Virus record (IMG/VR): IMGVR_UViG_645058793_000001 | Coordinates: 1 to 64,000 of that record | Reading direction: 5' to 3' (one strand) | From: a virus | Length of the DNA: 64,000 nt | Shown here: piece after piece, positions 6,364 to 64,000 of the stretch | How positions within the stretch are numbered: the stretch's first letter is position 1 | Layout of the letters: each line of letters opens with the position of its first letter | Translations under genes and position numbers: made by a program | The notes under the pieces: model-generated | Told to the model about the DNA's origin: nothing | Seen by the model: only the letters and a program-made list of their open reading frames with translations | Databases searched by the model: none

Positions 6364-6382
6364 AGTTAACCTCCTGCTACAT

Positions 6383-6406
6383 TAACGTATACGTTAACGT
6401 TAACCT
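6383..6406. repeat. ACGTWW hexamer palindromic array, copy A (TTAACGTATACGTTAACGTTAACC)
   Basis: Seen directly; the same motif family recurs at 18973, 21404, 25048 and 27835. Confidence 0.6.
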
Positions 6407-12734: not shown

Positions 12735-13138
12735 AAAATGTAATGACCTACTTACAATATCTAGCTGACGTGAACGGTATCACTATTATTGTTACTGACC
12801 AGCTAGACGAATATGAAAGCGACAAATGTATTCCAGCAATTAATACAATTATTATTAACGAGAATTATGCTACAAAAGTTGATGTGGCTTTTAGACTTGC
12901 GCATGAGTTATCTCATTTAATATTTGGATCACGTTTTTCAGATGCAATCTATTCATTTTCAATTGGAAGCAATCGTGACGCAGAACGTGAAGCCAATATC
13001 AATGCATTAAAGATGTTGTGCAAGTATCTATACACTGATACACCTTTAGAATATCGTAACTACATTAATTTTATGAATGAATTCGGTTTACCAGCTAGTA
13101 TGGAAAACATGGTGAAGGACGCTATATTAGCTGTTTAA
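12731..13138 (+). CDS. ImmA/IrrE-family zinc metallopeptidase (anti-repressor protease)
   Basis: HEXXH motif (AHELSHLIFG); translationally coupled to the XRE repressor, a classic ImmR/ImmA pair. Confidence 0.7.
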   Translation: MKNVMTYLQYLADVNGITIIVTDQLDEYESDKCIPAINTIIINENYATKVDVAFRLAHELSHLIFGSRFSDAIYSFSIGSNRDAEREANINALKMLCKYLYTDTPLEYRNYINFMNEFGLPASMENMVKDAILAV

Positions 13139-14311: not shown

Positions 14312-15016
14312 TTATTTTGCATTTTTTCGTGACCAGATAGAGTAAAACTTTCCATACAATGCAGTCACTAAGTAGAATAACATCGTTAGTAACATAGGCA
14401 AGCTAGATGCTGAGTAACCGATAAACAATGCTGATACCCACAGAGCAATATTAACAAAGTCAGACATTAACCACAATGAGTAGCTGTCACCATAACCCTT
14501 GAACACGTACCATGAAGCCATTGCTCCAATAATCAATACGATTGAATCCCATAGTGGGTTTGTATCACCTAACGCTGTGTACGCCATCAGTACTGGGTAC
14601 CATAGTGCTAGAATTAATACGATAGTAAAAATCCAGCCTTTAATAGATAGGAATTTTACACCGTCTTTTACACGGTTGCCCCACTTTTTCCATGTGATGA
14701 TTAATGGCACATCAATCAAGGCAACGAATACCAGTTGATCTAATACACTAGCGAAATGTCCAGCAGACCAGTTAATGTAAATATACCCTAACGCACTGAT
14801 TAATCCAAGCAGCCCATTAATAGGTTTACCAATCATCATGTACACGGTACATGCCGAACCAATAATTGTTGCGAATAATGTAATTGTGGATAGCACTGTA
14901 ATCGGCGCTGTTAGATAAAACGCTAACTGTACCCCCACAATAAACGCTAGCATAATTGCGCCAGCTGCATTCAGAGATTTAATCTCATCTAGTAACCATT
15001 TCCCATAACCTGTCAT
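14312..15016 (-). CDS. pnuC: nicotinamide riboside/NMN transporter PnuC-like
   Basis: 234 aa, about 7 TM helices, W-rich helices typical of the PnuC family. Confidence 0.6.
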   Translation of the reverse strand: MTGYGKWLLDEIKSLNAAGAIMLAFIVGVQLAFYLTAPITVLSTITLFATIIGSACTVYMMIGKPINGLLGLISALGYIYINWSAGHFASVLDQLVFVALIDVPLIITWKKWGNRVKDGVKFLSIKGWIFTIVLILALWYPVLMAYTALGDTNPLWDSIVLIIGAMASWYVFKGYGDSYSLWLMSDFVNIALWVSALFIGYSASSLPMLLTMLFYLVTALYGKFYSIWSRKNAK

Positions 15017-15139
15017 TTAATAACTACCTTTCCATTTTTAACGAACGCGCTCATACCATCAATAGCACCCTGCACATACGAAACGATTTCTCCATCTTTA
15101 TTTTTAATTCCTGCAATATATACGTCAGAATCGTGAACA

Positions 15140-15568
15140 CTAAAGTTCCTCTGTTTTGTCATTACTAACTACCTCCGTAACAACTTTCAATTCCTCAATC
15201 CTTTTACGTTTACCATTCAATTGCTTGTTACCTTTTTCAATGTGCTCACGGTTGTGATTAGCTGGTGAAACAACTTCTAGGTTATCCACATCAGCTCGTC
15301 CTTCCCATGCTTCACGCAAAGGCACAATGTGGTGAACTGTATTCCCATCAATCAACCGACCAAAGTCCACTAATTCCACTTGATCAAAACCATGGTCACG
15401 ATTGATTACTTTACGTCTAACCGATAGCCATTCACGACTACGATAGAACGCTTGTACTTCCTTTTCAGACGGCTGGTAACTATTCGTATGTCGATACTTA
15501 TCAAACGCTTTCTTGCGCCTGTTGATAGCCGTCTGTTGCATGTCACTTATTAATGAGGTAGTTTGCAA
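15140..15568 (-). CDS. HNH endonuclease
   Basis: HNH motif (NTVHHIVPLREAW ... N ... H). Confidence 0.6.
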   Translation of the reverse strand: MQTTSLISDMQQTAINRRKKAFDKYRHTNSYQPSEKEVQAFYRSREWLSVRRKVINRDHGFDQVELVDFGRLIDGNTVHHIVPLREAWEGRADVDNLEVVSPANHNREHIEKGNKQLNGKRKRIEELKVVTEVVSNDKTEEL

Positions 15569-15845
15569 TTAACTCACCTTCATTTCCAACACCAGCTTCA
15601 TACCATTCAACGACTGCATCACTAGGTACTGGCTTACCTTTAACTAAAGAATCTTCCATTAACTTACCCATTGATTTAAGCAATGATCGTGACATAAATC
15701 CTCTGTTAGAATCTTCGCCAGATTCTTTAAACTGGTTTGATAAAACTTTAATACTTAATGCAGTAAATACGTCAGCAATCACATCTGGATTACCAGTGTC
15801 AGTGTGTTTCATACCTTCTAACCAATCGATTACATAATCTGGCAT
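15543..15845 (-). CDS. hypothetical protein (100 aa)
   Basis: ORF. Confidence 0.35.
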   Translation of the reverse strand: MPDYVIDWLEGMKHTDTGNPDVIADVFTALSIKVLSNQFKESGEDSNRGFMSRSLLKSMGKLMEDSLVKGKPVPSDAVVEWYEAGVGNEGELIANYLINK

Positions 15846-15846
15846 A

Positions 15847-16272
15847 TTAGATATACTCCTTTTCCATTGCTGCGAAATTTATCCACGGATATTCCTGTTC
15901 AACTGCTGGGAAATCATCGTCAGTCCAAACCAAATCGATGTCTAACATACCAGCAAGTTCCTCGTTCATATTAATTTCAATACGATCAGTAACTTTATTA
16001 CGACCAATATACTTACCACGTTCTGTACGCAACATAAATGGTTTGTCATCATCGTTACCGTCAATTAGCAAATCAATATACTTACGGGCTTTCTTTAAAT
16101 CTTCCTTGCCGTTTTTCTTATCAGCGCGAGAAACATACTTAATGATATTAGCAACCTTCCATGCCTCGCTGCCGTTCATACCAGCAACAATACTATTGAT
16201 ATGATCCTTCACTTCAGTACCGTCTGATAGTACGTAATGCTCTGGCTTATCTATAATGTCAAATGAACTCAT
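15847..16272 (-). CDS. DUF3310-like phage protein
   Basis: PEHY...KY(V)SRADKKNGKEDLKKARKYIDLLI pattern resembles the DUF3310 family. Confidence 0.4.
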   Translation of the reverse strand: MSSFDIIDKPEHYVLSDGTEVKDHINSIVAGMNGSEAWKVANIIKYVSRADKKNGKEDLKKARKYIDLLIDGNDDDKPFMLRTERGKYIGRNKVTDRIEINMNEELAGMLDIDLVWTDDDFPAVEQEYPWINFAAMEKEYI

Positions 16273-16654
16273 ACACCTTTTCTCTTTCTAAATTAGAATC
16301 TAATACACGCTGGTAAATATCTACTCGTTTAAATCGTTTCAATAAACGGTCTAGGTTGTTCAATCCAAACTCATAAGCACTGCGTTTTGATTCTGATAAC
16401 CATAACGAATAGGTGTCATCACCAATCACTTCCCACACGCTGATAGGATTAGGATCTTGTTCAACTGAGATACTACCTGCGGAAAATAAATCTAATCGGC
16501 TTAACGTTTCAGCTAACTCATCAGCCTTCGTTCGACTAAATAATTTAGCTCCATCAGCCGAATATACCCACTCTAAATTCACTGGGTTCTCACTAGCAAA
16601 ATATGCTTTCATACCAGCTAGTTCGTACACCACAACGTATTTATACATTGGCAA
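16259..16654 (-). CDS. hypothetical protein (131 aa)
   Basis: ORF. Confidence 0.35.
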   Translation of the reverse strand: MPMYKYVVVYELAGMKAYFASENPVNLEWVYSADGAKLFSRTKADELAETLSRLDLFSAGSISVEQDPNPISVWEVIGDDTYSLWLSESKRSAYEFGLNNLDRLLKRFKRVDIYQRVLDSNLEREKVYEFI

Positions 16655-17270
16655 TTTTCCTATCGATAATATCCAATACTCTCAGTGCATCTTCTGGATT
16701 AGATAAATCATTGTGCTCCAAATCAATTCGAATCTTTGGAGATATATCATAATCATCAAACCACTCACGATAACGATTCCACATACGATGATAATATTCT
16801 TCAAGGCTTGGGTCATTTTCAATTTGTTCATAATCACGACCACGTTTCTTAATACGATTTAGAATGGTATCAAAATCTGCATCGATAAATACCAGTAAAT
16901 CTGGACGTTCCTTAGCCGTCGCATTAATTTCGCCCATCATATTATCAAGTAGGTCTAAGTAGATGTTATATTCAACATCGGTGATATTACCTGATTTATG
17001 ATTTTCTGCGGTGAACAAAGCGTCCTCATAAATCGAACGGTCTAAGATATTGTTATCGTCTGCTAGCGCTTGCTTAATCATCGCGAACCGCTTGTTTAAA
17101 AAGTAAATCTGCAACGAGAATGCAAACCGTTCCGGATTCTTATAATAATCAGGTAGCACGGGGTTACCTTCAACTGGTTCGTAGAATGGTCGTGTACCTA
17201 AATGTTCTGCTAATAGTGTGGTCAGTGTTGTTTTCCCTACACCAATCATGCCTGCTGTAATAATCACCAT
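16641..17270 (-). CDS. deoxynucleoside kinase (dAK/dCK/dGK family)
   Basis: P-loop GMIGVGKTT; DRS motif (LDRSIYED); arginine-rich lid (KKRGRDYE). Confidence 0.8.
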   Translation of the reverse strand: MVIITAGMIGVGKTTLTTLLAEHLGTRPFYEPVEGNPVLPDYYKNPERFAFSLQIYFLNKRFAMIKQALADDNNILDRSIYEDALFTAENHKSGNITDVEYNIYLDLLDNMMGEINATAKERPDLLVFIDADFDTILNRIKKRGRDYEQIENDPSLEEYYHRMWNRYREWFDDYDISPKIRIDLEHNDLSNPEDALRVLDIIDRKIANV

Positions 17271-17374
17271 TACTCCTACTTTCGTTTGTTAATCTGATAC
17301 ATCAAGATAATCAGCATTGCTAGTATCGTGACAATAAAAATCTTACCGATGAAAAATGCCATGTTAGTTACCTC

Positions 17375-18223
17375 TTACTTGTTATCGACAATCGTTCCGT
17401 TAGAACCTTGAACGGTAACCCAACCATGTTGCTTACGAGCCTCTGCTTCCATGTATTGGATAGTCTTGTCATTTACAGAATCATTAATTTTCTTATTGGC
17501 TTCTGCTTGTGCGTTAGCCTTTTCAATGGTTGCGTCAGCTTCACCCTTCGCCTTAGTCTTTGCAGCCTTGGCATCAGCTTCTGCCTGCGTGTTCTTTGTT
17601 TCAGCTTCTAATTGGGCTTTCTTATTGTCTTGGCCAGCTTTGATAATATCGTCAATTGACTTTTGTGTTTGTGGATCCAATGTTGGTGTTCCAAATGATA
17701 AATCTTCAATGATAAATCCTTGCTTATCGGCGCGTTCACGGAACATATCCAATAGCTTTGCTTGAACCTTAGTTGAATCAGAACCAACAACATCTAACAA
17801 CGTGTATTGAGATAATACGGTACGTCCAGATGCAGTTAACTGTTGGTTTAACCAACCCTTTTCAATTGTTTCAATATCAACGTTTCCAAATTTCTTATAA
17901 ACAGAAGTTGCCTTTGACGGATCCACATGATACGTAAATGTGATTGCTGTATCTGTTTTCTTACCGTCAGATGTTGCTAACGAAACTGTTTGCTTAACTG
18001 TTTGTGACTTAATTGGATATTGTGTAACCTTATCTAGCCCAACCCAGTGAACACCTTGTGTCAGTGCTTGATTGCGTACACCACCACTCATTGAATACTC
18101 GATACCAACGTTTCCATTGTCAACTTTCTCAAACGTCTTAAAACCTCCAATTGTAACTACTACACCAGCAATAGCGACAATCGCGCCTCCCTTAACCATC
18201 TTCACAAATGTACTCTCTTGCAT
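17375..18223 (-). CDS. SPFH/band-7 (prohibitin/stomatin-like) membrane protein with Ala/Lys-rich coiled-coil tail
   Basis: N-terminal TM anchor, SPFH-like core (VGIEYSMSGGV ... FIIEDLSFGTP), C-terminal AEADAKAAKTKAKGEADA low-complexity coil. Confidence 0.55.
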   Translation of the reverse strand: MQESTFVKMVKGGAIVAIAGVVVTIGGFKTFEKVDNGNVGIEYSMSGGVRNQALTQGVHWVGLDKVTQYPIKSQTVKQTVSLATSDGKKTDTAITFTYHVDPSKATSVYKKFGNVDIETIEKGWLNQQLTASGRTVLSQYTLLDVVGSDSTKVQAKLLDMFRERADKQGFIIEDLSFGTPTLDPQTQKSIDDIIKAGQDNKKAQLEAETKNTQAEADAKAAKTKAKGEADATIEKANAQAEANKKINDSVNDKTIQYMEAEARKQHGWVTVQGSNGTIVDNK

Positions 18224-18226
18224 GTT

Positions 18227-18643
18227 TTATTCCTCCGTAAGTAATCGTTTATATAATCGCTTGAAAAAAGCGTTTCGTTGTCTAAAAAGTAAAGCTCGAC
18301 TAACACCAAACTTTATTGCTAACGAGACCATTGTCTCTTGTGTATGACGTTTGAAATACAATTCATTAATTAGTGTTTGCATTTCATCACTTTCACGACC
18401 AACCATGCGACGAATTGTCTTTTGATTGTGTGTCAGTGTATTTAATTTTTTATCATCAGCAACCTTGATTACTGTGCTTTCGAACGCGTGCGTGTTGTTA
18501 TTCTGCATACGTCCACCACCAATATTTTCATCGGTTTCATTCCGCTTAACCATTAACTCGAATTCGGTACGTTTGATTTCCACATCAAGCTCTGGATAGC
18601 GTCTCAACCAAGCCGCAACTGTTGCTGTTTCTTTACTCGTCAA
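18227..18643 (-). CDS. ArpU-family phage late transcriptional regulator
   Basis: Sigma-like helix pattern (ATVAAWLRRYPELDVEIKRTEFEL ... ALLFRQRNAFFKRL). Confidence 0.6.
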   Translation of the reverse strand: MTSKETATVAAWLRRYPELDVEIKRTEFELMVKRNETDENIGGGRMQNNNTHAFESTVIKVADDKKLNTLTHNQKTIRRMVGRESDEMQTLINELYFKRHTQETMVSLAIKFGVSRALLFRQRNAFFKRLYKRLLTEE

Positions 18644-18971
18644 ATCCGTAACCTACCAATCCTTCATTAATAATTTTCAAGGCATCTTCTGACGAACGTG
18701 CAATACCGTGAATAACTCCACGGTTGCTTAATGCTTGATGGAAAAATATCTGGTCTTTTCGTGGCCGACCAGTGGCAGTTTTAACTTCTATGTAGAACAC
18801 CTGATTATCTGTCTTACGGAACCCATATAAATCAGGGTGTCCATTCGGTACGCCAGTCATGAACCAACGATCATCTTTAGTCAGAACTTTACCAGTGTTA
18901 ATACGGAAAACAACGTGTCCGTCATGTTCAACTGCAGCACGAATAGCGTTTTGAATATCTTGTTCTCTCAT
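18633..18971 (-). CDS. VRR-NUC domain nuclease (start moved to the internal Met)
   Basis: VRR-NUC motifs (GHPDLYGF ... IEVKTATG ... K); the longer ORF to 19031 would translate the hexamer repeat (NVYVNVNVN), so ATG at 18969-18971 is preferred. Confidence 0.65.
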   Translation of the reverse strand: MREQDIQNAIRAAVEHDGHVVFRINTGKVLTKDDRWFMTGVPNGHPDLYGFRKTDNQVFYIEVKTATGRPRKDQIFFHQALSNRGVIHGIARSSEDALKIINEGLVGYGFDE

Positions 18972-18972
18972 G

Positions 18973-19000
18973 TTTACGTTAACGTTAACGTATACGTTAA
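18973..19000. repeat. ACGTWW hexamer array, copy B (TTTACGTTAACGTTAACGTATACGTTAA); extra partial unit 19015-19028 inside the primase 3' end
   Basis: Seen directly. Confidence 0.6.
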
Positions 19001-21387
19001 TGTTCTGGTATCTTAAACGTATACGATACACCCTCCTTCAACATAATTCCTTTGTATCCACGGCCTCTAGCTGTGCGTTTTGTTTTAAAGCGTTTAGCTA
19101 ACTCACTACCTAACATCTTACGAGTTGGATAATCATCAGGTTCCTCACCAACAAATTGACCCCAAGCATTTGTAACGTCTGGACCTTCTACAAAACCAGC
19201 TTCATTTTCAATGAATGTTTCTTTGATAAATTCGCCAATCGGATCACTGCTTGAATGATATTTTTCGTTTGCTTGTTTCACTGCATAAGGAACGGGACCT
19301 AGTCCTTCGTTACGCCACTTAGTAGCAGCTTTAATAAGGTACCATAGAATTGCACCAGCTTCCGTTTCTAACTTATGACCAAGGTTAACGTCAACGTCTT
19401 CCTCTTTGATTGTTAAATTGAATGGTATGACGTTCGTACGACGCCAGATACCTTCGGACGTATCGTTAATTTGTGGTAAGTAGTTTGTATCAAAGAACGG
19501 TACACCAGCTGATTGGAACTCGTATGGACGATTGTATTTTTCATTGGCAACGAACGTGCCACCACCAGTAAGTTTCTTAATGATTGCTGCGTCTAACTTT
19601 TTATTCTGTGCAATCTCAGATACCGATACCAAACGTGCGCCACGCAAACGCGCTAACTCATCGTTATTGCTGGTACTTTTCTTGCCGTCGTCCATGAATG
19701 TATCTGGGTTAACAGCTGTTACGTAATCTCCTAAGGCGTTTTTAATTGCACTCATCAAAACACCTTTACCATTACGACCGTTACCGTATAGCAAGACGTA
19801 TTCTTGTTCCTCACCATTACCGAACATTGAATATCCAACGAATTTCATCAGATAGTCAACCATGTCAGCGTCACCCAACATAACCTGATTTAGAAAAGTT
19901 TTGAATTCCTTAGGTTCAAGGTTTTTATCAGGCGCAATCAGCGTGCTCTTAGTGAAATATCGCTTAGGGTCATTGTCACTACGCTCACCAGTTGCTAAAT
20001 CATAGACACCATCTGGTGTGTTAATAACACCAACTTCCTTATCGAATATATTGATGTCCACATTAACCATCGAGGCTAGTAACTTCTTAGCACTATTCAA
20101 CCCTTTATCAGTACGTACCGACTTGGCAAATTTATGGAACGCATTAATTGCCGATTTTTTATCTTTTGAATAATTCTTCTCAGCAAGTTCTAAATCCTTT
20201 TGGTCTGGATAATTCTCGACGGTTGGTTCTGGTGGCATGATAGGTTCCTCAGTCTCAAGGATAATATCGCTGAGCTTAATAAACAATTTGTGTACCACAC
20301 GCTCAACGTCACGTTTCCATACCGTTCCGTCGAATACCATAAACGTTGTCTCAGACTTTTCCGAATCAACATGTAACACCTTGTCGCCCCAACGTTCATA
20401 GAAACGTTCTGCCATTCCTTGATCAGTGTAATCATGGTGTGGATAAACCTTTTCTTCGTCACCGTTTCCAATCACAACTGAGAAAGCTTCTGTCTTAGGA
20501 CGATACGTTTCAGTCACGTCAGTAATTGCACGATTAATCGTACCTTCACCATACGTTGACTTACCATGTTTCTCGTCCCATTTATCACGCATCAAACCAG
20601 AGTCTCGGAATATTTCGTCCATGAGATAACGGTCACGACCAGTCCAGAATGCTAATAGATTAACGAACGCTAGGTCAGCCTCCGATGCTGAACCATATTC
20701 GTCTTGCCAGTTACCGTCATAAAGCTTTTTAAAATTAGCACCACCATTAGATGCCAAAGCTTTTTCGATAACTTCTTCTTTAGTTAAATCGTTATGTTCA
20801 ATCACAACATCTTCTAATCTAGGGCGTTCCTCTGGACGAATAAGCGTGTTATATACGTGGTCAATCATTTCTTGTCCGGGAGCATTAATAGTATCTTTGT
20901 GACCCATGATGCTCATACCAGTTAAAGCAAAGAAACGACCTGTGCTGTACATCTCAACAACTTTGTCACCGTCTTGGTTTTGACGCGACTTATCACCGGG
21001 CAAGGTACCTTTAGCAATGATATGAATGCCTTCGTGAGATTGTGACAATTCGGTATATGATCCCATTGCTTCAATTGCCATACCAAGTTGCGTAGTATTA
21101 TAACCTTGTTCATACAAGTCAATCTCATCTTGGTAATGATCCATATCAATACCGAAAAACGGTGGCTTCAAAAAGAAAGCCAAACCGTCTGCATCAAAGA
21201 TTTCCATGTTTGCTAAAGCTTCATCAAAAGTTGTCCATGTACGTTCATCAGTAGAACTAGCGTGTCGGCCAGTCATTGCACTGACAGGAATTTTCGTATA
21301 ACGACTGCTCGTATCGTTCCATTCTTTACGATACAAGCCCCATTGATTAACTGACTTTAATTCTTCTGGTAAGTCTTGATAGCTCAT
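18997..21387 (-). CDS. DNA primase / P4-type (D5-like) primase-helicase
   Basis: 796 aa; C-terminal Walker A NGRNGKGVLMSAI; N-terminal primase-like region; position in the replication module. Confidence 0.75.
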   Translation of the reverse strand: MSYQDLPEELKSVNQWGLYRKEWNDTSSRYTKIPVSAMTGRHASSTDERTWTTFDEALANMEIFDADGLAFFLKPPFFGIDMDHYQDEIDLYEQGYNTTQLGMAIEAMGSYTELSQSHEGIHIIAKGTLPGDKSRQNQDGDKVVEMYSTGRFFALTGMSIMGHKDTINAPGQEMIDHVYNTLIRPEERPRLEDVVIEHNDLTKEEVIEKALASNGGANFKKLYDGNWQDEYGSASEADLAFVNLLAFWTGRDRYLMDEIFRDSGLMRDKWDEKHGKSTYGEGTINRAITDVTETYRPKTEAFSVVIGNGDEEKVYPHHDYTDQGMAERFYERWGDKVLHVDSEKSETTFMVFDGTVWKRDVERVVHKLFIKLSDIILETEEPIMPPEPTVENYPDQKDLELAEKNYSKDKKSAINAFHKFAKSVRTDKGLNSAKKLLASMVNVDINIFDKEVGVINTPDGVYDLATGERSDNDPKRYFTKSTLIAPDKNLEPKEFKTFLNQVMLGDADMVDYLMKFVGYSMFGNGEEQEYVLLYGNGRNGKGVLMSAIKNALGDYVTAVNPDTFMDDGKKSTSNNDELARLRGARLVSVSEIAQNKKLDAAIIKKLTGGGTFVANEKYNRPYEFQSAGVPFFDTNYLPQINDTSEGIWRRTNVIPFNLTIKEEDVDVNLGHKLETEAGAILWYLIKAATKWRNEGLGPVPYAVKQANEKYHSSSDPIGEFIKETFIENEAGFVEGPDVTNAWGQFVGEEPDDYPTRKMLGSELAKRFKTKRTARGRGYKGIMLKEGVSYTFKIPEH

Positions 21388-21403
21388 GTAATCCTCTTTC
21401 TAA

Positions 21404-21436
21404 ATTAACGTATACGTATACGTTAACGTTAACTTT
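21404..21436. repeat. ACGTWW hexamer array, copy C (AATTAACGTATACGTATACGTTAACGTTAACTTT)
   Basis: Seen directly. Confidence 0.6.
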
Positions 21437-21440
21437 AAAA

Positions 21441-21941
21441 TTAAAATGGTAGATCGTCAGCAGAAATATTGACCTCTTCACCACCAGCGAATAAATCAAT
21501 GCCATTAGCACGGTAATCTACTTGTGGGAACTTAGATACGTTGCGTGCCTTCACGCGCAAGTTCTCATATTCCTTACCTTGCCATGATGATTTCTCGTTC
21601 TTAACACGAACTCGTAGTGGCTTACCAACAAAGGCATCTAGGAAATCGCCAAAATCTTTAAATTCTTGTCCTTCATTTAATCCAGCAGCCTTAGCAAATC
21701 CCATTAAGATACTGTTGTTATACTTACCATCAACAGCTTGCGGATACATATCGTCGAAGATGTGTGCGCCACCGAAACGTTGATCAGTAATATCCTTACG
21801 AATAACTAAATCAAAATGTAGACGTGACTTGCCATTTGGATTAGTTCCTTCTTCGGCTTTCTTAACAACAACTTCATATTCACCATCAGCGATATTGTAG
21901 TCGTTATCATTTACTTCTGAAAAATCTAGCTTGAAACTCAT
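21441..21941 (-). CDS. DUF669-like protein (putative ssDNA-binding) with SSB-like acidic C-terminal tail
   Basis: GEYEVVVKKAEEG...LHFDLVI pattern; C-terminal ADDLPF resembles the SSB DDDIPF tail. Confidence 0.45.
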   Translation of the reverse strand: MSFKLDFSEVNDNDYNIADGEYEVVVKKAEEGTNPNGKSRLHFDLVIRKDITDQRFGGAHIFDDMYPQAVDGKYNNSILMGFAKAAGLNEGQEFKDFGDFLDAFVGKPLRVRVKNEKSSWQGKEYENLRVKARNVSKFPQVDYRANGIDLFAGGEEVNISADDLPF

Positions 21942-21949
21942 TGTATAAT

Positions 21950-23305
21950 TTACCTCTTTACAAATTTATGAACCCACCAGTTGTATTTCTTTGGGTATGG
22001 AATGTCTCTCATCGCAGCTTCACGCACAGCTTTATAAACTGAATGCTGCTTTGTTTTGGCTATCGCAAGTAAATCATCAAATGTTTTTGCATCTGAATAC
22101 TCGCGATAATCCAAAGTAATTGTTTCTTTAGTAGGGGCTGATATTAATTGTTCCAGTTCCGTTTCTCGTTTAACTTCATATTGTCGTCTTGAGTTCGGTT
22201 CGAGGAACGTGAATTCTTCATTGAATTTTGGAACTGGTAATTTATCAAATCCCGATTGTTTGGTCTCACCATCTAATGACCAGTCGTGGTCAGTATCAGG
22301 AAAACCGTGTATTGCATAATTACCAACGTGATCAATAATCTTAGCGACTTTACCCGGAACGTATCGCATTGAACGCATAGCGAATTGAATGTACATTGAT
22401 AGCGATTTCGTCGGACGTAGCTGAATAACAGTTTCAACATTAGGAACATCAACACCTTCCAAAAACAATTCCGCATTGGATAGTATCTTGATATCTCCGT
22501 CACGGAACGAATTCATTAACGCAGCACGCTCGTCCTTATGCGTTTTACCGTCAACGTGAGCAGCAGGTATGCCAGCATCATTAAACGCCTGTACAACTGC
22601 CTTAGAACTTTCCACATCAACTGCGTAAACAAATGCTTGCGTGTTGTTAGCTATTCTCTGGTAACTTTTAACAACATCACCGAAGATAACTTTCTTAGAT
22701 GCCTCATGCATCGACTTATTCGTGTAATCACCGCGTGACACTTTCAAACTTTCTAAGTCAAACAGGGTAGGGGCATAATATTCAAACGGCGCTAATCGCT
22801 TATGTTCGATTAGCCATGACACTGACTTGCCAATCACCATACCGTCGGCTACATCTCTAAAACCTTCACCAGATAATCTAACGGGTGTCGCAGTAAACAT
22901 TAACTGAACCACATTATCGAATTGTGCCAGCAAACGTTTATACGTAGCAGCTAAACTGTGGTGGGCCTCATCAACGAACACAACGTCAGGGTGGGTGAGC
23001 TTGTCTTTTTTTCGTTCGATTGTTTTAATCATGCCGACGTCCGCCAAGTCCATGTTTACACCATGCTTAGTAAAACTGTTCTTAACCTGATTGACGATTT
23101 CCACACGATGTACCACGAATAATACGCGGTTGCCCTTGTCGGTGGTACGCTTAGCAATTTCTGCCATAGTAACGGTCTTACCTGATCCAGCCGGGCTAAC
23201 AACCATAACGTGTTTATGACCGTTAGTAAGTTCTTTATAAATCCCATCGATTAACTCCAGTTGGTAATCGTATAAACTAAACGTCAAACTTGAACAAGTC
23301 CTCAC
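21950..23305 (-). CDS. DEAD/DEAH-box superfamily-2 DNA helicase
   Basis: Walker A SPAGSGKT; DEAH box VFVDEAHH; helicase C-terminal domain. Confidence 0.75.
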   Translation of the reverse strand: MRTCSSLTFSLYDYQLELIDGIYKELTNGHKHVMVVSPAGSGKTVTMAEIAKRTTDKGNRVLFVVHRVEIVNQVKNSFTKHGVNMDLADVGMIKTIERKKDKLTHPDVVFVDEAHHSLAATYKRLLAQFDNVVQLMFTATPVRLSGEGFRDVADGMVIGKSVSWLIEHKRLAPFEYYAPTLFDLESLKVSRGDYTNKSMHEASKKVIFGDVVKSYQRIANNTQAFVYAVDVESSKAVVQAFNDAGIPAAHVDGKTHKDERAALMNSFRDGDIKILSNAELFLEGVDVPNVETVIQLRPTKSLSMYIQFAMRSMRYVPGKVAKIIDHVGNYAIHGFPDTDHDWSLDGETKQSGFDKLPVPKFNEEFTFLEPNSRRQYEVKRETELEQLISAPTKETITLDYREYSDAKTFDDLLAIAKTKQHSVYKAVREAAMRDIPYPKKYNWWVHKFVKR

Positions 23306-23963
23306 TAGACGACGCTGTTCGATTATCTAAACGATTCTTAGCGGTAACGAAATCATTACCAGAAAGGATAACGCCACGGTTACCAGTATCAGGATTAATC
23401 ATCATACGACCGACCATATCGGTTAACCCAAGTAATCCGTTACGTGAGTTAGCACGAATTTCTGGAACAAACTTTTTAAATGTTTGACCACTTTCATTTG
23501 GTACATCATCATTGACTTCCCATGCGGTTACCAAAATATTGATTGGTAGCTCATAGATAACTGTCATGATACGTGCAAAATAATTCGTCCATTGTGAGTA
23601 GTGTTGCAGCTCATTACTAATACCGTTCTTAGACTCGCGACCTTTTTCAACGAACCAATCTTTCTCAAGGGAAGATACGTTATCAATCACTAATGTATCG
23701 AAATGATTTTCCTCGATAGTAGTGGGTATATCACGCAGCAATTCCTCCATTGATTGCGAGGGGTGTTGCCGATCAAACGGCACGATAAAAATGTTATCTT
23801 CACCAGCCAATACACGACTGGAATTATCTAAATCAACGACCAACGTCTTACCAGGCAAATTACGAATAGCTGACGTTTTACCAACGCCCGGCTTTCCATA
23901 AAGTAAGATGCGCCAATTGTTGATACGCTTAAGTCCCTTAGCAGGGGCGAAATTAATTGTCAT
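23277..23963 (-). CDS. AAA/RecA-like ATPase (Sak4-like)
   Basis: Walker A YGKPGVGKTS; 228 aa; sits between Gp157-like and DUF669 genes, as in the Sak4 module. Confidence 0.6.
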   Translation of the reverse strand: MTINFAPAKGLKRINNWRILLYGKPGVGKTSAIRNLPGKTLVVDLDNSSRVLAGEDNIFIVPFDRQHPSQSMEELLRDIPTTIEENHFDTLVIDNVSSLEKDWFVEKGRESKNGISNELQHYSQWTNYFARIMTVIYELPINILVTAWEVNDDVPNESGQTFKKFVPEIRANSRNGLLGLTDMVGRMMINPDTGNRGVILSGNDFVTAKNRLDNRTASSSEDLFKFDV

Positions 23964-24298
23964 TTAAAATACCTATTCTTAATTTTTGTAAACGCAGGAA
24001 ATAAATCCAAATCCTTGGCGTATTGATCGAGCGTGCTAATACCAACGTTTAACTCATTGTATATCTGTAAGTAATTAGCATTTTGTAATACCAACTCACG
24101 GAAACGTTTCAAACGTCGTTCACGTTCGTTGCGTAGCTTCTCAGCACGTTTCGTAATGTTCCGTTCATCGTTATACCCAGTGCTTTTTCCTTGTGCAGGG
24201 CGCTCAACAACGGCTGTCAGATTAAGTTCACTTGCTTTATAAAACTTACCAGTGTGGATTTTACTTGGACCCATTGTCCCAACATCATAATCTCCCAT
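23960..24298 (-). CDS. hypothetical protein (112 aa)
   Basis: ORF. Confidence 0.35.
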   Translation of the reverse strand: MGDYDVGTMGPSKIHTGKFYKASELNLTAVVERPAQGKSTGYNDERNITKRAEKLRNERERRLKRFRELVLQNANYLQIYNELNVGISTLDQYAKDLDLFPAFTKIKNRYFK

Positions 24299-24777
24299 TA
24301 ACGTAATCCGAGTGTCTGATTATCCACAATGCGTGCTCCTGGCACTTCAATACCAGACTTAATTGCGTCCTTGATGTCAGCACGCTTTAATGAAACCTTG
24401 TATTCAGCATATTGTGGTGGTACAGATTCTTCATCGTCGATAACAACTTTTGAAGATTTACGATACTTGAATTTAAAATTACCGGCATCGACTTCATTCA
24501 TACCAAATGTATACATCGCTTCATCAACAGCTGACATCATACGACTGATTTTATTTTCAATTGTCTTACGCTTTTCACTTAGCTGCTTTTCCTCAGCTTT
24601 CAATGCATCTCGGTCAGCCTCAAGATTACGAATAACATGCCCATAACCAATTAACTTGTCAGAACTTGCGTCACGAATTGCGTCCAAGGTATCTTGTTTT
24701 AACTCATCATCATCAATATCTGAATTATATAGTCGCAAAAAATCACCTTGCATTTCATATAAGTTCAATCTCGACAC
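24298..24777 (-). CDS. Siphovirus Gp157-like protein
   Basis: Size, coiled-coil composition and position upstream of the Sak4-like ATPase. Confidence 0.45.
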   Translation of the reverse strand: MSRLNLYEMQGDFLRLYNSDIDDDELKQDTLDAIRDASSDKLIGYGHVIRNLEADRDALKAEEKQLSEKRKTIENKISRMMSAVDEAMYTFGMNEVDAGNFKFKYRKSSKVVIDDEESVPPQYAEYKVSLKRADIKDAIKSGIEVPGARIVDNQTLGLR

Positions 24778-24785
24778 ACTCCTTT

Positions 24786-25013
24786 CTAGAAAAAATCTTC
24801 CTCAGTTACTCGTTTAACGGTGACGATATTATCTTCTGTAAAATCCTCTACATCAGCTAAATCGTTCGATAGGGTACTGTATGAACCAACGGTTATCCAA
24901 TACCAAATATCATCACTATTAATGAATTCTGATAAGGTCATGACGTTCTCCACATTGTCGTAAATGGTTGGTTCCTCTTTAGATAACCAATCCATATATT
25001 CATCTAGGGACAT
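24786..25013 (-). CDS. hypothetical acidic protein (75 aa)
   Basis: First ORF of the leftward replication operon. Confidence 0.3.
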   Translation of the reverse strand: MSLDEYMDWLSKEEPTIYDNVENVMTLSEFINSDDIWYWITVGSYSTLSNDLADVEDFTEDNIVTVKRVTEEDFF

Positions 25014-25047
25014 TTGTCACTCCTTGTGTTATAATTTATTAAGTTAT

Positions 25048-25078
25048 CGTAAACGTATACGTGAACGTTAACGTCAAC
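25048..25078. repeat. ACGTWW hexamer array, copy D (CGTAAACGTATACGTGAACGTTAACGTCAAC) in the divergent promoter region
   Basis: Seen directly. Confidence 0.6.
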
Positions 25079-25172
25079 TTACAAGTAATAATATAAATCC
25101 AAACAGGTCAGGGAACTATCAAATATAAAGAATGCCAATAAAACAATTAATTTTATAAGAAAGGTCAATATT

Positions 25173-25517
25173 ATGAACTCGGTAAAAGACTTCGACTTAA
25201 AAGAACGAATAAAAATTTTAGCTGAGCAGCAAGGAAAATCATTAGCGGACATCACAAAAGAATCTGGATATACGTCTGGACGTATTGGTAATTGGTCACA
25301 ATTTTTTCCTGGCATGGCTCAGGTTGAACACATCGCAAGTTTGCTGGACGTATCGATATTAGATTTGTTGCCATACACGGCAGAAGATTTAGGAATTGAT
25401 ACAATACCAGAAACAACACCAAAAGGCGTGTTAATGACGACAGTAAACAAATCAAACTTAACGGACAGCCAGTACATCATATTAGTCGATTTAATTAAAT
25501 CAATGGAGGAAGGTTAA
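25173..25517 (+). CDS. XRE-family HTH regulator (114 aa)
   Basis: HTH (SLADITKESGYTSGRIGNWSQ); first gene of the par operon. Confidence 0.55.
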   Translation: MNSVKDFDLKERIKILAEQQGKSLADITKESGYTSGRIGNWSQFFPGMAQVEHIASLLDVSILDLLPYTAEDLGIDTIPETTPKGVLMTTVNKSNLTDSQYIILVDLIKSMEEG

Positions 25518-26272
25518 TGTCAGCAACCATAACAGCGTTTTATAACAACAAGGGTGGGGTAGCTAAGACGACATCAACAATTAATATTGCTGGGGAATTG
25601 TCTAAGCAACAAAAAAAGACCCTGATAATCGACGCGGATCCACAGGGGCATTCAACATTAAGTTTTGGATATGATGCAGACTCAATTGATGTTGAACTAG
25701 GTACAATGTTGTACAACAAGTTAGAAGGTTCACAAGCAAAAGAATACTTTATTCACATAAACGACTATCTCGATGTTGTACCAGCAAATCAAACGTTAGC
25801 CGATTTCATCGCCTCAAACCCAGAAGGGAACAATTACCTTAATGACTTCCTAAAAGGGCTGAGAGACGAATATGATTACATATTTATCGATATGGCACCG
25901 GCAGTCGACGTTATCCTAGCCAATGTGTTGAATGTAGTTGACGACTTAGTGGTATTATCTAGTCCACAACCATACGCAGTTCGTAATACCGAACGTACTT
26001 TAAACACAACTGACAGCTACAATGTACCAATTCGACGGATAGTTGCAACCATGGTGGATAAGCGTGTCAATACAGATAAAGAATTTCTAGAGCAGTTAAA
26101 GGAAATTGCAACAGAACATAACGTAAAGTTAGCTGATACGTATATTCCAATGCGTGCTGCATTCCGCGACAGTATGGGTAGGTATCAAATGCCGTTATCG
26201 CTAGTTGATGAACCTAGCTATAAAGAGGCACAACAGTATTATCATAAATTAACGAAAGAGTTGGGATATTAA
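25517..26272 (+). CDS. parA: ParA/Soj-family partition ATPase
   Basis: Deviant Walker A NNKGGVAKTT; ParA-like length and motifs (IIDADPQG). Confidence 0.8.
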   Translation: MSATITAFYNNKGGVAKTTSTINIAGELSKQQKKTLIIDADPQGHSTLSFGYDADSIDVELGTMLYNKLEGSQAKEYFIHINDYLDVVPANQTLADFIASNPEGNNYLNDFLKGLRDEYDYIFIDMAPAVDVILANVLNVVDDLVVLSSPQPYAVRNTERTLNTTDSYNVPIRRIVATMVDKRVNTDKEFLEQLKEIATEHNVKLADTYIPMRAAFRDSMGRYQMPLSLVDEPSYKEAQQYYHKLTKELGY

Positions 26273-26273
26273 T

Positions 26274-26522
26274 ATGGCTAAACCACAATTTCTAAGGAGA
26301 CCAACAAACGTATTAAAGCAGGATCCACAACCTGAAAAAGAAGTGGATCTAAGAACTAAAAGCAGTGAGGAAACAGCAACCGAATTATTAGCTGTTAGAG
26401 CAACACCAACAGTTAAGAAATTATTAGATGATTTAGGTAGTGAACTTGGTGTTAGGCAGGGTGGTAGAAGAAAAATTATCGAAGACGCCTTGTTTGATTA
26501 CTATGAAAAACAAAAAGATTAA
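26274..26522 (+). CDS. ParG/ParB-like small centromere-binding protein (putative RHH fold)
   Basis: 82 aa, basic N-terminal tail, C-terminal RHH-like (RRKIIEDALFDYYE); translationally coupled to parA. Confidence 0.45.
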   Translation: MAKPQFLRRPTNVLKQDPQPEKEVDLRTKSSEETATELLAVRATPTVKKLLDDLGSELGVRQGGRRKIIEDALFDYYEKQKD

Positions 26523-26529
26523 GTTTAAC

Positions 26530-26568
26530 GACTGGCTATCGCGTATGTGCAACTGCTAGTCGTTTTTT
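26530..26568 (+). terminator. rho-independent terminator of the par operon
   Basis: ACGACTGG...CTAGTCGT hairpin followed by TTTTTT. Confidence 0.5.
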
Positions 26569-26569
26569 A

Positions 26570-27456
26570 ACGCTATCCAAAACGCTCGCTGTACAAGTGA
26601 ACTTAATGTACGACTAAATTATATCCAGAACCGATTGTTAGTATCCTGCAGTCACTTAGTAGCCTCAAGCCGGCAGGCATTTATCACTTACGTTCTTTTA
26701 AAAATCTTCTAAAACCTTTGACAAGTAACCAAGATTAACGCTTTGAGCGCTAGGAGTGAGTTGAAGATACAGTTCACCCATAAGTCGTAGTATGAACCGT
26801 AACTGAATTGATTAACGCTTCTCGCGAAGTCGGTCGTCTCATCACATCTATCGCTCACTCATAACATTACTTTACCATGTGTCGGATTCCGTATACCTGC
26901 ATGTTTTGATTTCTCAATTTGTAACGTCCATTCGTTTGTCTTACCAAACGAGGAATCGTAGATCAACCTAGTTACCGTTCATAGCGTATAACCACGTCAA
27001 TGTTTTGCCACCCACAAGCCCAGTTAATCATGCGTTAATATTAATATTTAACGTTTAGAAATTTTCCCATTACTGAGTTGGAAGCCAGAGGCAGTGTCCT
27101 TAGATGCGCTCCCCACACCCCGATACACCTGATAGAAAGTAGCATATCGGGAAGCCCTTTGAATAACCGCGGTAACCTCTCCGCGCCACAATGTGGATAA
27201 CCAATGACGAAGGTTTCTCACGCAAAAAAAGAGACTCCAGTTACAATCCATCTGTTGTAATCGAAGTCTCTACTTGCTTGAAATTCTATCTGAAATAGGT
27301 TATAATTATCCTATTAAATAAAGATAGTAATTCTTTGTGAGTCGTTATCAAGGTCTGCCAACCAAGATAACATTTCGATACTCGCAACGTGTGAATGAGA
27401 TTGCTAATATCTGGAACACTTCAAAGCCTGCCAGCTGAGAAGTGTTCTTTTTTTGT
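26570..27456 (+). ncRNA. candidate large structured ncRNA (ORF-free, terminator-bounded)
   Basis: About 900 nt without a credible ORF, GC content visibly above the flanking genes, many local hairpins (e.g. CCGATA...TATCGG, CGCGG...CCGCG), ends at a strong plus-strand terminator at 27414-27456. Confidence 0.25.
27414..27456 (+). terminator. rho-independent terminator
   Basis: GAACACTTC ... GAAGTGTTC 9-bp stem followed by TTTTTTTG. Confidence 0.55.
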
Positions 27457-27559
27457 ATTAAGTTATTTGATGTCTCAATCATAACCTATCGGTGGGCTAG
27501 AAGTCAACAACCAAATTGTAAGAATTGCTAAAGACGTATTAAAGTTTACATAATCTATA

Positions 27560-27754
27560 TTATCGTAAGTTGTTTTTCTTTTCTAATTCCGCTAATTTTT
27601 GACGCAACAACTCGTTTTCAAGCCGTGCGTTCTGCTCGTTAATCTTATTCATTTTATATTGCTGACCTTGATTAGATCCCTCTATAAACGAATTAAATAT
27701 ATACCCGATTGAACCAATAACAAACAATACTAATGCTAATACAAATGGCCACAT
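27560..27754 (-). CDS. small membrane/coiled-coil protein (64 aa), possible lysis accessory
   Basis: N-terminal TM helix then coiled coil. Confidence 0.4.
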   Translation of the reverse strand: MWPFVLALVLFVIGSIGYIFNSFIEGSNQGQQYKMNKINEQNARLENELLRQKLAELEKKNNLR

Positions 27755-27789
27755 AACAATTACCCTCCGTTTTAAATATATTTATTATA

Positions 27790-27832
27790 CACAAAAAGCC
27801 CCACCAGTACCATCAGATACCAGTGGGGCAAT
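27790..27832 (-). terminator. rho-independent terminator (minus strand)
   Basis: GCCCCACCAGTA...TACCAGTGGGGC hairpin followed by T-run on the minus strand. Confidence 0.5.
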
Positions 27833-27834
27833 GG

Positions 27835-27870
27835 GTTAACGTAAATGTATACGTTAACGTTAACGTTATT
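27835..27870. repeat. ACGTWW hexamer array, copy E (GTTAACGTAAATGTATACGTTAACGTTAACGTTATT)
   Basis: Seen directly; lies between the endolysin stop and its terminator. Confidence 0.6.
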
Positions 27871-28796
27871 TATTTAACTTCGGTAAGACTAGCAGCATTC
27901 ACCCATACGTTGCCATATCGGGTACTGAATGCAATACCATTAGAGGCTTCATCAACATCTTCCACACGAATGCGGTCAGAGTGTAGACGGAAATAGTCGC
28001 CAACCTTAAGCGTTTGGTTAGCAGTCTTATTTCCTTTGCTATCAACCTTATCGACTGATTCAACACCTAATCCATTAAGTGTCCAATTGATTGGTTTACC
28101 GCCAGCAAAAGCATAGTTGACAACTTGCCAGATGCCATTAACTTGCTTTAGTTCGTCCACACGATATGCAGGTTTAGCTTTGAAATACTCGCCAACGTTT
28201 AATACTTGGTCGACTTTTGCAGTTGACTTAGCAGAAGTGGCGGGAGTGGTGACTGCACCACCGACACCGTATTTAATATCATGCTTTAGCTTATCGTATG
28301 ATACACCCCACTTTTGTAGAAATGGTAGTGGGTCGACATGGTCAGAACCATGACCAGTACGTGAAGCATAGTTGTGAGTTTTAACTCCAACAGTACCCGG
28401 TGTGTCTAACGTGAAATCAGTAATGCCAGCTTCCTTTGCTAGTTGCCGTGCAAGTTCAATATAAATTTTATAGTCACGATTGAACTCAGCTTGGTTAGCT
28501 ACATGTTCATTGAACTCGATTGCTGCATATCCTTCCCAGTTCCAATCTCCGCCAACATCATACGCACCACCATTAGTAGCAGCTACTTGAATAGCTTGTC
28601 CTTCACCAACGATGTGTGTGTAATAGGCGTTACCATACGAACGTGATAGGTATGAAATTGAGTTAGCATTAGTTGCATTAGGATTACCAGTTGAGTGCAA
28701 ATGAACTTGTCGGAAAGGCGCACGCGCCAATCCAGCTGCAACTGCAGGCTTACCTGGAACCACAATATTTTTAATTACGTTAACCATTATTACCAC
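27870..28796 (-). CDS. endolysin: N-acetylmuramoyl-L-alanine amidase-type catalytic domain with two C-terminal SH3b-like repeats
   Basis: N-terminal amidase-like motifs (VHLHSTGNP, GYAAIEFN, HGSDHVDP); two repeated C-terminal VG(E/D)YF...V modules. Confidence 0.7.
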   Translation of the reverse strand: MVIMVNVIKNIVVPGKPAVAAGLARAPFRQVHLHSTGNPNATNANSISYLSRSYGNAYYTHIVGEGQAIQVAATNGGAYDVGGDWNWEGYAAIEFNEHVANQAEFNRDYKIYIELARQLAKEAGITDFTLDTPGTVGVKTHNYASRTGHGSDHVDPLPFLQKWGVSYDKLKHDIKYGVGGAVTTPATSAKSTAKVDQVLNVGEYFKAKPAYRVDELKQVNGIWQVVNYAFAGGKPINWTLNGLGVESVDKVDSKGNKTANQTLKVGDYFRLHSDRIRVEDVDEASNGIAFSTRYGNVWVNAASLTEVK

Positions 28797-62964: not shown

Positions 62965-63013
62965 ACCACATTTAAATAGAAATATCAGAATAGCCACAAG
63001 AAAATGTAGCTAA

Positions 63014-63986: not shown

Positions 63987-64000
63987 ACATTATGCAAGTA

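Follow-up and report, generated by a model that had tools for sequence, protein, structure and literature searches.

A partition operon of apparent plasmid origin in the integrase slot of a temperate Weissella paramesenteroides siphovirus points to a probable phage-plasmid

The 64,000-nucleotide stretch analysed here, referred to as the window, comprises positions 1 to 64,000 of the virus record IMGVR_UViG_645058793_000001 and represents almost the entire genome, a 65,011-bp circle, of a temperate siphovirus of Weissella paramesenteroides. From the letters of the window, it had been predicted that a partition (par) operon at 25173-26568, together with the lack of an integrase, marks a temperate phage that persists outside the chromosome. 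Our analysis supports this original prediction, and we put the probability that the phage is maintained as a free, low-copy circular plasmid prophage (phage-plasmid) at roughly 0.7. The evidence consists of the homology of the partition cassette to plasmid cassettes, its location in the slot taken by int and cI in the temperate Lactobacillus phage A2, and the recovery of the genome as a stand-alone circle without a host junction; the episomal state itself we infer from these observations.

The par operon lies on the plus strand and starts with the gene for a 114-amino-acid (aa) XRE-like helix-turn-helix (HTH) protein (25173-25517), followed by the genes for a 251-aa ParA (25517-26272) and an 82-aa partner protein (26274-26522). 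Since the parA start overlaps the stop of the HTH gene by 1 nt and a 1-nt spacer separates parA from the third gene, the three genes are translationally coupled. The operon is closed by an intrinsic terminator at 26527-26568, consisting of a hairpin (26527-26564) followed by UUUUUU (ΔG −16.6 kcal/mol, z −2.6).

ParA matched the Pfam families AAA_31 (7.9e-33), CbiA (2.5e-15) and ParA (2.8e-15), as well as the PHROG annotated as 'ParA-like partition protein' (4.6e-49). The deviant Walker A motif KGGVAKTT occupies residues 12-19, and an alignment of 12 homologues revealed the signature lysine, P-loop, Walker A' and Walker B residues (K12, G13, G14, K17, T18, D39, D41 and D125) to be invariant. 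The protein aligned end to end with plasmid ParAs of 251-259 aa and has no N-terminal HTH extension, which is the reason for classifying it as type Ib-like. The closest solved structures were Soj/ParA proteins (Soj-type 5.5e-21 vs ParF 1.8e-7). When the cassette was considered as a defence system, PADLOC returned only a trivial P-loop match.

Judging from homology and gene order, the par cassette is clearly of plasmid origin, its proposed source being plasmids of Lactobacillales. Over its full length, the window ParA is 48-54% identical to a large family found on plasmids of Pediococcus, Secundilactobacillus, Enterococcus, Tetragenococcus and Lactococcus, whereas the ParAs of GenBank phages share at most 33% identity with it; a ParA scan of species-representative genomes likewise yielded relatives at 33% identity or less only. 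Closer counterparts, 70-73% identical, were present in related phages, namely a metagenomic contig (L108) and two Weissella confusa assemblies (L113, GCA_025127155.1; L114, GCA_025127175.1), in which the arrangement is conserved. On the plasmids, the genes are ordered Resolvase - ParA - 99-aa gene - about 650 nt - RepA_N. Such RepA_N-type plasmids of Pediococcus claussenii (NC_017017.1), Tetragenococcus halophilus (NC_010523.1) and Lactococcus lactis (pK214, NC_009751.1) share with the phage a homologous ParA, the small protein and a repeat array with a TGTTATAAT promoter. They differ in having a serine resolvase upstream and RepA_N downstream, neither of which is found in the phage, while the phage carries the XRE HTH gene, a dif-like site, four extra arrays elsewhere and, ahead of a second array, 1.3 kb of non-coding DNA. 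The repeat sequence differs as well, being TAGTTA/TAATTA on the plasmids and NN-ACGT in the phage.

The 82-aa protein is probably a ribbon-helix-helix (RHH) centromere binder of an uncharacterised family, as predicted from its modelled fold. It aligned with the plasmid 99-aa proteins and with proteins of 107-113 aa from the related phages. A shared layout was evident in this small-protein family: an MxKPxF N-terminus leads via a variable acidic/basic linker into a strand and a helix, which a G-x-x-K-G-G-x-K loop joins to a second helix. A profile search collected 55 members, none of which (0/55) had a Pfam domain, and no characterisation of the family was found in the literature searched. For the 82-aa protein itself, there was no PHROG match and no Pfam match even at E ≤ 10; membership in the ParG (Pfam ParG) or omega families was tested, and no similarity to ParG or omega was detectable. 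In a phmmer search against 1.84 billion representatives, it found only itself and one unrelated repeat protein of 1,111 aa; the latter contains six stretches like residues 41-77, which would be tandem RHH-like units. An AlphaFold model, calculated with the homologue alignment as input, showed residues 1-34 to be disordered, followed by an extended segment and helices at 45-58 and 64-80, with a pLDDT of 73-82 in that part. Foldseek comparison with the PDB gave top matches that were all RHH proteins (CopG, CopA_SO, TacA and Arc), with a TM of ~0.7 on the target and an rmsd of 1.2-1.9 Å at E ≥ 0.6, values that are not significant owing to the very small size of the domain. A profile search of PDB sequences found one RHH protein, weakly, at E = 1.5.

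Upstream of the operon lies a 160-bp divergent control region. The par promoter-like site, GGGACA-17-TATAAT with a TG-extended −10 element, TGTGTTATAAT (25007-25035, plus strand), agrees with the consensus in 10 of 12 positions. Four nt after its −10, the main hexamer array starts, formed by 8 units of NN-ACGT of the GTTAAC/GTATAC type (25039-25086). On the opposite strand, a weaker promoter-like site (9/12 matches) at 25150-25177 would serve the divergent early/replication operon, and its transcript would cross the array, which thus lies between the two promoters; this assignment is an interpretation of the sequence. A second array at 27837-27866 brackets, together with the main array, the par genes, the non-coding DNA and the dif-like block; positions 25043-25074 and 27835-27866 are 91% identical. 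When the main array was considered as an RNA hairpin, the fold was no better than those of shuffled sequences (z −1.8).

In the related phages L108, L113 and L114, a period-6 array is located between the terminator of the HTH gene and parA, directly upstream of the TGTTATAAT promoter. In the plasmid homologues on metagenomic plasmid loci (L103-L106 and L111), a period-6 array of TAGTTA/TAATTA units is found at the same place and a second one just after the small gene. The −10 element abuts a repeat array upstream of parA in all of these. From these positions, it follows that the arrays travel with ParA and the small protein and not with the HTH gene. Moreover, the array sequence differs among three groups whose predicted beta-strands also differ (AVRAT, TIVMS and SVAVE). 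We propose that the arrays at par correspond to a type Ib layout, with a putative centromere doubling as operator.

The HTH protein gave no Pfam match at E ≤ 0.01; its residues 4-76 matched PHROG transcriptional-regulator/repressor families at 4.7e-7 (phrog_8) and 7.5e-4, and the identical protein is labelled 'XRE family transcriptional regulator' by NCBI. The original prediction had counted it as part of a complete type Ib-like cassette. This held for ParA with its KGGVAKTT motif and for the small downstream partner, which is predicted to be RHH, but not for the XRE HTH, which stands outside the canonical cassette because it is absent from the plasmid homologues and forms a separate transcription unit with its own terminator in the related phages. 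We propose that the 114-aa protein is a phage-specific regulator at the position of cI.

One could regard the cassette as a non-functional passenger left over from a plasmid, with lysogeny achieved in some other mode; the rearrangement of the plasmid architecture, through the inserted HTH gene and the 1.3 kb separating the small gene from the second array, would be in line with this. We judge it quite improbable, given the invariance of all ParA catalytic residues and the translational coupling of the three genes. In addition, the cassette, its arrays and its position have been kept across phage lineages in spite of divergence of ParA to 70% and of the small protein to ~33%, which implies purifying selection.

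The genome could be closed with JBSMQF010000013.1, a 65,138-nt contig of W. paramesenteroides that is 100% identical to the window and links window position 1 to position 64000 via 1,011 further bases; as it bridges both window ends, the genome is a 65,011-bp circle. The termini of this contig map to window positions 33564 and 33438, and its first 127 bases equal its last 127 (65,138 − 65,011 = 127), which, going by the coordinates, would fit a circular contig from an assembler run at k = 127. The 1,011 bp beyond the window hold one 172-aa HTH_3 gene (Pfam 1.3e-13), one hexamer array and non-coding DNA. Two more assemblies contain the phage as phage-only contigs of 63,280 and 66,014 nt, both broken within the repetitive tail-fibre gene.

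Around the whole circle, the Pfam hits recorded for every called gene revealed no integrase, resolvase, recombinase, rve, transposase or protelomerase. Unassigned open reading frames (ORFs) of at least 170 aa, scanned at E ≤ 10, contained nothing recombinase-like, and when the full circle was searched by tblastn, none of the queries (two RepA_N proteins, two tyrosine integrases, a serine resolvase and an rve transposase) had a match below E = 1. The tblastn result also excluded a RepA_N remnant, an integrase pseudogene or a transposase in the non-coding stretches. The claim that the window lacks a recombinase is therefore borne out and can be extended to the 65,011-bp circle, and the search for an integrase, attP or protelomerase in the complete genome, which had been suggested as a check, found none. 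That the phage is an ordinary integrating prophage, with integrase and attP outside the window, had nothing in its favour beyond the window being a fragment. As the circle is closed and the missing 1,011 bp have been read from the identical contig, this alternative is refuted unless the contig is misassembled, and we allow it next to no probability.

The position of the par operon in the genome is informative. In phage A2, which has a homologous replication module with its genes in the same order, the tail fibre, holin and lysin genes precede int, xis and cI, which are encoded on the opposite strand; next come divergent operators, cro and ant, and after them Sak4, helicase, DUF669-type single-stranded DNA-binding protein, primase and the origin. 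In the window, tail, holin and lysin genes are followed by the 82-aa gene, ParA and HTH genes on the opposite strand, the divergent control region, and Gp157, Sak4-like AAA_24, helicase, DUF669 and primase. The par operon occupies the A2 int-xis-cI slot, with the HTH gene where cI is. The early/replication operon, divergent from par on the minus strand (14312-25013), encodes Gp157, AAA_24 (Sak4-like), a helicase, DUF669, a D5-type primase-helicase (18997-21387), VRR-NUC and others, the primase-helicase being 37% identical to that of A2. This operon presumably is the replicon in both the lytic and the plasmid state. A Gp157 scan of IMG/VR for closer relatives bearing an integrase found one distant locus only.

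The lysogeny switch postulated for this phage was found with all its elements at 10974-13138. On the minus strand, a Bro-N/ANT/HTH protein, the antirepressor (10974-11975), is encoded downstream of a 71-aa cro-like gene (11965-12180). On the plus strand, an XRE repressor (12405-12734) precedes an ImmA-like metalloprotease (12731-13138), and between the cro-like gene and the repressor gene there are three CACATAATTATGTG operators at 12218, 12336 and 12366. The CI/Cro-type switch is genuine, and the premise that the phage is temperate is therefore sound.

An exact-protein look-up placed the par operon on 13 public contigs, each of them phage-like. Proteins identical to ParA, HTH and the 82-aa protein appear in the annotations of W. 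paramesenteroides ATCC 33313 and of other strains of the species, and the contigs of the isolate-derived data set SRR089528 carry the ParA that NCBI annotates in ATCC 33313. The element is present in genome data of the long-held type strain and of at least two other isolates, with relatives in two W. confusa isolates. Among GenBank phages, megablast with 24800-27900 and 29000-53900 gave no match. A DNA-level search of PLSDB with 14000-38900 (24.9 kb) gave only a 600-bp match in a prohibitin gene of a Pediococcus record. This record, NZ_CP118742.1 of Pediococcus pentosaceus ('plasmid unnamed3'), was rejected as a relative, being a different phage of 61.9 kb that is linear and has a tyrosine integrase. 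It carries many of the same auxiliary genes (PnuC, dNK, TK, prohibitin, DUF1642) and shares with the window only the prohibitin gene, at 75% identity.

These occurrences bear on the suggestion that there is no stable prophage, the phage living in a carrier state, as a pseudolysogen, or effectively as a lytic phage, with ParA and the small protein organising replicating DNA or acting on the host. ParA homologues do occur in phages with no reported plasmid state, on which grounds a census doubts its SPO1-like 'BigBertha' group (PMC7969092), and replicating phage DNA would equally be expected to yield circular, phage-only contigs. Nevertheless, we regard this suggestion as unlikely in view of the full CI/Cro-type switch with its three operators, ImmA protease and antirepressor, and of the presence of the element in the type strain and further isolates and of relatives in W. 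confusa isolates. The closest kin of the cassette are plasmid cassettes and not phage ParAs, and a dif-like site would be useful only to an inherited replicon.

This dif-like XerC/XerD site, ACTTACGATAATATAGATTATGTAAACT, is located on the minus strand at 27543-27570 and is a putative multimer-resolution site. It agrees in 24 of 28 positions with dif of B. subtilis (PMC3025954), and likewise with dif of E. mundtii (PMC4131831), the XerD arm matching in 11/11. The site is unique in the 65,011-bp circle, nothing else being found within 7 mismatches, and it was reproduced in 0 of 200 shuffles. Both arms are invariant throughout the variants and the W. confusa-type phages, whereas the 6 bp at the centre differ (TATAGA, CGTAGA, CATAGA); such a pattern would be expected for resolution between identical copies and not for recombination with a fixed host dif. 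Similar sites are present in intergenic DNA of hundreds of plasmids of Enterococcus, Staphylococcus and Bacillus. The most economical role of the site would be multimer resolution by host XerC/D, a task performed by the resolvase on the plasmid homologues. Adjoining it, and located after the late-operon terminator, is a 64-aa ORF (27560-27754, minus strand) whose stop codon overlaps the site; the encoded protein is a membrane-anchored coiled coil with weak similarity in PHROG to Rz-like spanins. Across the dif-like site, phage-to-phage sequence was found in all 13 contigs with parA and in all 12 with the 64-aa gene, without any host junction.

The presence of this site makes the argument 'no integrase, therefore plasmid' incomplete, because it opens a route of integration that needs no integrase. 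The phage would then exploit Xer in an IMEX-like manner, integrating at the chromosomal dif by means of host XerC/D, and par would serve a transient episomal phase or have another role. A unique and conserved dif-like site with 24/28 matches and a perfect XerD arm, lying immediately downstream of the lysis module where attP normally sits, fits with this, as does a genome that has no recombinase of its own. Xer-mediated integration is established for filamentous phages such as CTXphi; we know of no tailed phage that uses this route. Set against it, every public contig with the site, including the isolate-derived ones (SRR089528; GCA_053758625.1), stays phage-to-phage with no host junction, and the drift of the central region next to fixed arms is hard to square with pairing to one host dif. 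Furthermore, FtsK-activated Xer would, at division, excise a site having two good arms, and a complete, conserved, plasmid-derived par cassette would be purposeless in an integrated element. The evidence favours dimer resolution over integration at this site, and we consider Xer-mediated integration, although it is the chief alternative, improbable.

Two W. confusa records of 2.0 and 2.4 Mb were examined as candidates for chromosomal integration of relatives, which was rejected. In both, the boundary is a 10-N scaffold gap in a tail gene (17241-17250 in L113; 17559-17568 in L114), at different host loci and with different adjoining host genes. These phage-host boundaries are not att junctions because they are 10-N scaffold joins at a place where other assemblies break. 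The W. confusa relative is probably a separate replicon that was mis-scaffolded into the chromosome.

For the phage-plasmid reading, the following course of events is proposed. After infection, the DNA would circularise, and the CI/Cro-type switch at 12.2-12.4 kb, with XRE repressor and ImmA protease, would set lysogeny. The phage's own primase-helicase module would replicate the circle, and the plasmid-derived par operon would segregate the copies. In this process, the 82-aa RHH protein would coat the hexamer arrays in the par control region, 2.8 kb away from it and at four places in the early region; the N-terminal tail of this protein, disordered and basic, would stimulate the ATPase of ParA, and ParA would separate the copies across the nucleoid. 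Owing to the placement of the main array between the promoter of par and that of the divergent early operon, the 82-aa protein probably also autoregulates par and damps the replication operon, as omega does on pSM19035. Plasmid dimers would be resolved at 27543-27570 by host XerC/D, replacing the serine resolvase of the plasmid cassette.

Several points weigh against the phage-plasmid reading or parts of it. A circular assembly is equally given by replicating or packaged phage DNA, and spontaneous induction or a carrier state could explain why an isolate assembly contains a phage-only contig. The placement in 2-Mb scaffolds of W. confusa, though not an att junction, is no proof of episomality either, and integration into the chromosome through the dif-like site is conceivable in principle. 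A plasmid-type replicase is absent, the only candidate being the phage D5-type primase-helicase, so that the phage module is assumed to drive replication in the plasmid mode. Behind the RHH assignment are a medium-confidence model (mean pLDDT 63.5) and Foldseek matches with non-significant E-values. That the 82-aa protein binds the arrays is derived from position and from co-variation over only three groups, and as arrays are also found at intergenic sites far from par, another protein or another purpose may be involved.

These distant arrays deserve description. In the window, the hexamer motif with its ACGT core occurs 17 times against 0.54 expected. Six arrays, each of 4-8 tandem hexamers, were identified in the circle; five are intergenic in the early/lysogeny half and none lies in structural genes. 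In addition to the two that bracket the par region, one is located between the DUF669 and primase genes (21406-21435), with a syntenic array in L108, L113 and L114; one at the 3' end of the primase gene (18968-19003), the equivalent place to that of the annotated replication origin of phage A2; and one in an intergenic gap of the second early operon (6377-6406). The sixth is found beyond the window, in the remaining 1,011 bp, within the 172-aa HTH_3 gene, where it encodes LTLTLT. The location of arrays at the primase flanks and in early gaps, syntenic in relatives, suggests an omega-like regulatory reach.

The original prediction had also noted a terminator followed by a long non-coding region. 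Terminator and gene-free DNA of about 1 kb are both present, 26523-27560 containing no credible ORF, but the stretch is not empty, as it houses the dif-like Xer site. Between the par operon and the lysis genes, positions 26570-27225 (minus strand, tentatively) form a candidate structured RNA, or structured DNA, of ~650 nt. Comparison of the window with the W. confusa-type phages revealed conserved blocks separated by diverged stretches with compensatory changes, such as CCCGAT/ATCGGG vs CCCGG/CCGGG and CCAC/GTGG vs CCTC/GAGG. RNAalifold gave −79.8 kcal/mol for the minus strand, compared with −45.3 ± 6.4 for column shuffles (z −5.4), and z −2.8 for the plus strand; 36 of the 105 predicted pairs were changed on both sides, vs 2-3 with slid partners. 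It is a candidate, because there are only two lineages and the structure was derived from them. Rfam 15 contains no family matching 26400-27900 at E ≤ 1, and pattern scans with a conserved block of the RNA gave none in IMG/VR and one chance match in a high-GC metagenome contig. GEBRO RNA (RF02988) was considered and is absent from the window, with only a 48-nt partial match of 22 bits (gathering score 284.7) in the relative L113. A DnaA-box origin was likewise rejected, since the one perfect box (27192-27200) is part of a helix showing co-variation in relatives and since boxes are scattered, unclustered, over the genome.

Next to the candidate RNA, a strong minus-strand terminator hairpin is found at 27224-27271 (ΔG −22.3, z −4.6), the position of which is conserved in relatives. 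It is followed at 27278-27455 on the plus strand by a small-RNA-like unit of ~140 nt, with a near-consensus promoter (TTGAAA-17-TATAAT, 11/12) and a terminator (ΔG −17.5). This arrangement recurs in relatives without sequence conservation and has no convincing peptide ORF; possibly, it is a small RNA convergent with the minus-strand transcription that ends at 27224-27271. A type I toxin-antitoxin system in 27226-27560 was rejected, there being no hydrophobic peptide ORF.

A more far-reaching idea is that 25039-27866 constitutes a self-contained plasmid-maintenance island, uniting partition, Xer dimer resolution and a new ~650-nt RNA for replication or copy control in the plasmid state, with the RHH protein as an omega-like master regulator that couples replication to partition via the six arrays. 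We put this forward as a speculation and hold it to be doubtful; if true, the structured RNA would be a new class of large RNA in a phage that also carries GOLLD.

GOLLD RNA (RF02032, 173 bits, E 5e-47) is located at 62203-62575 on the minus strand, near a tRNA-Asn (63013-63087, minus strand). Both sit in a gene-free stretch of ~2.4 kb that runs beyond the window end to the 172-aa HTH_3 gene. A second match to the tRNA model, of 142 nt and 34 bits (gathering score 29), was not called by ARAGORN; it covers window positions 63907-64000 plus 48 nt past the end on the minus strand and may be a tRNA-like element with a long insert.

The remainder of the genome provides a complete set of phage functions: TerS/TerL, portal, ClpP-type protease, capsid, connector, tail tube, tape measure, Dit, a tail/host-recognition protein, holin, amidase lysin and XRE/ImmA/Ant. 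The large terminase shares 55% identity with its counterpart in Lactobacillus phage JCL1032. In a relative from ERR15951202 (16839-19631, relating to window 51923-53818), a GIY-YIG endonuclease gene interrupts that of the large terminase, apparently as a homing-endonuclease or intron insertion; the window has no such interruption. In the head module, a 303-aa ORF (46926-47837, minus strand) has no Pfam match even at E ≤ 10, and the adjoining 117-aa protein (47837-48190, minus strand) consists largely of Thr/Pro repeats. Auxiliary genes are unusually many for a 65-kb siphovirus, comprising an Rnl2-type RNA ligase, a thymidine kinase, a PnuC-type nicotinamide riboside transporter, a deoxynucleoside kinase, a Band_7/prohibitin protein, a PgpA-like protein just upstream of TerS and a nucleoside 2-deoxyribosyltransferase. 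Taken from RNA ligase to deoxyribosyltransferase, this set covers 3411-4358, 5218-5763, 14312-15016, 16641-17270, 17375-18223, 54213-54695 and 59940-60470.

The findings have some practical implications. The family of the partner protein is widespread on plasmids of food fermentations, and plasmid-borne prophages can move genes between starter and probiotic strains. As prophage finders seek integrases and host flanks, such Weissella elements will be missed or misplaced, and two W. confusa assemblies already bury a relative in 2-Mb scaffolds. For the large-RNA field, a candidate structured RNA in a phage carrying GOLLD offers a lead.

Type Ib partition systems, as represented by ParF-ParG-parH of TP228 and delta-omega of pSM19035, consist of a small Walker ParA without N-terminal DNA-binding domain and a small dimeric RHH binder with a flexible N-terminal tail. 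Their centromere is formed by short tandem repeats upstream that double as operator, and omega regulates replication genes from arrays at several promoters. The phage system resembles these in its small ParA without N-terminal domain, the predicted RHH partner with a tail, and the tandem repeats upstream; its repeats are 6 bp long and are thus neither 7-bp heptads nor 4-bp boxes.

P1, with ParA-ParB-parS and Cre/lox, and N15, with SopAB and a protelomerase, likewise combine a phage replicon with a partition system and a means of dealing with dimers. P1, however, has a type Ia ParA with its own HTH as well as its own recombinase, and N15 is linear, whereas the Weissella phage has a type Ib-like system, no recombinase or protelomerase, and apparently uses host Xer. 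A 28-bp XerC-central-XerD site on an element without its own recombinase, as seen here, is also known from ColE1 (cer), pSC101 (psi) and the IMEX elements CTXphi and VGJphi. Of these, cer and psi depend on accessory sequences and proteins, and IMEX elements occur in an integrated form at dif, while the Weissella phage has a single dif-like site per circle and is seen integrated in no contig.

Phage-plasmids are well known from enterobacteria, Bacillus, Clostridium and mycobacteria; in the cluster A mycobacteriophages, the centromere binder is an HTH ParB acting with parS sites, unlike the partner protein of the window. Cluster A phages have no integration cassette, encode a partition system and keep their prophages extrachromosomal (PMC7969092). 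They thus show the same swap of integration for partition in temperate siphoviruses, albeit in another host phylum, and episomal maintenance is experimental for them, while for the Weissella phage we infer it. In lactic acid bacteria, phage-plasmids have only been predicted, including those of the pLP39 community of lactobacilli (Pfeifer et al. 2021; PMC7969092); these and the Weissella phage are both predicted phage-plasmids of Lactobacillaceae. The literature searched contained no report of this element or of any Weissella phage-plasmid. We conclude that it is a new but unsurprising example of the known phage-plasmid type, distinguished by a type Ib-like plasmid cassette with an undescribed partner family, its location in the integrase slot, the dif-like site, the dispersed arrays and the neighbouring candidate RNA.

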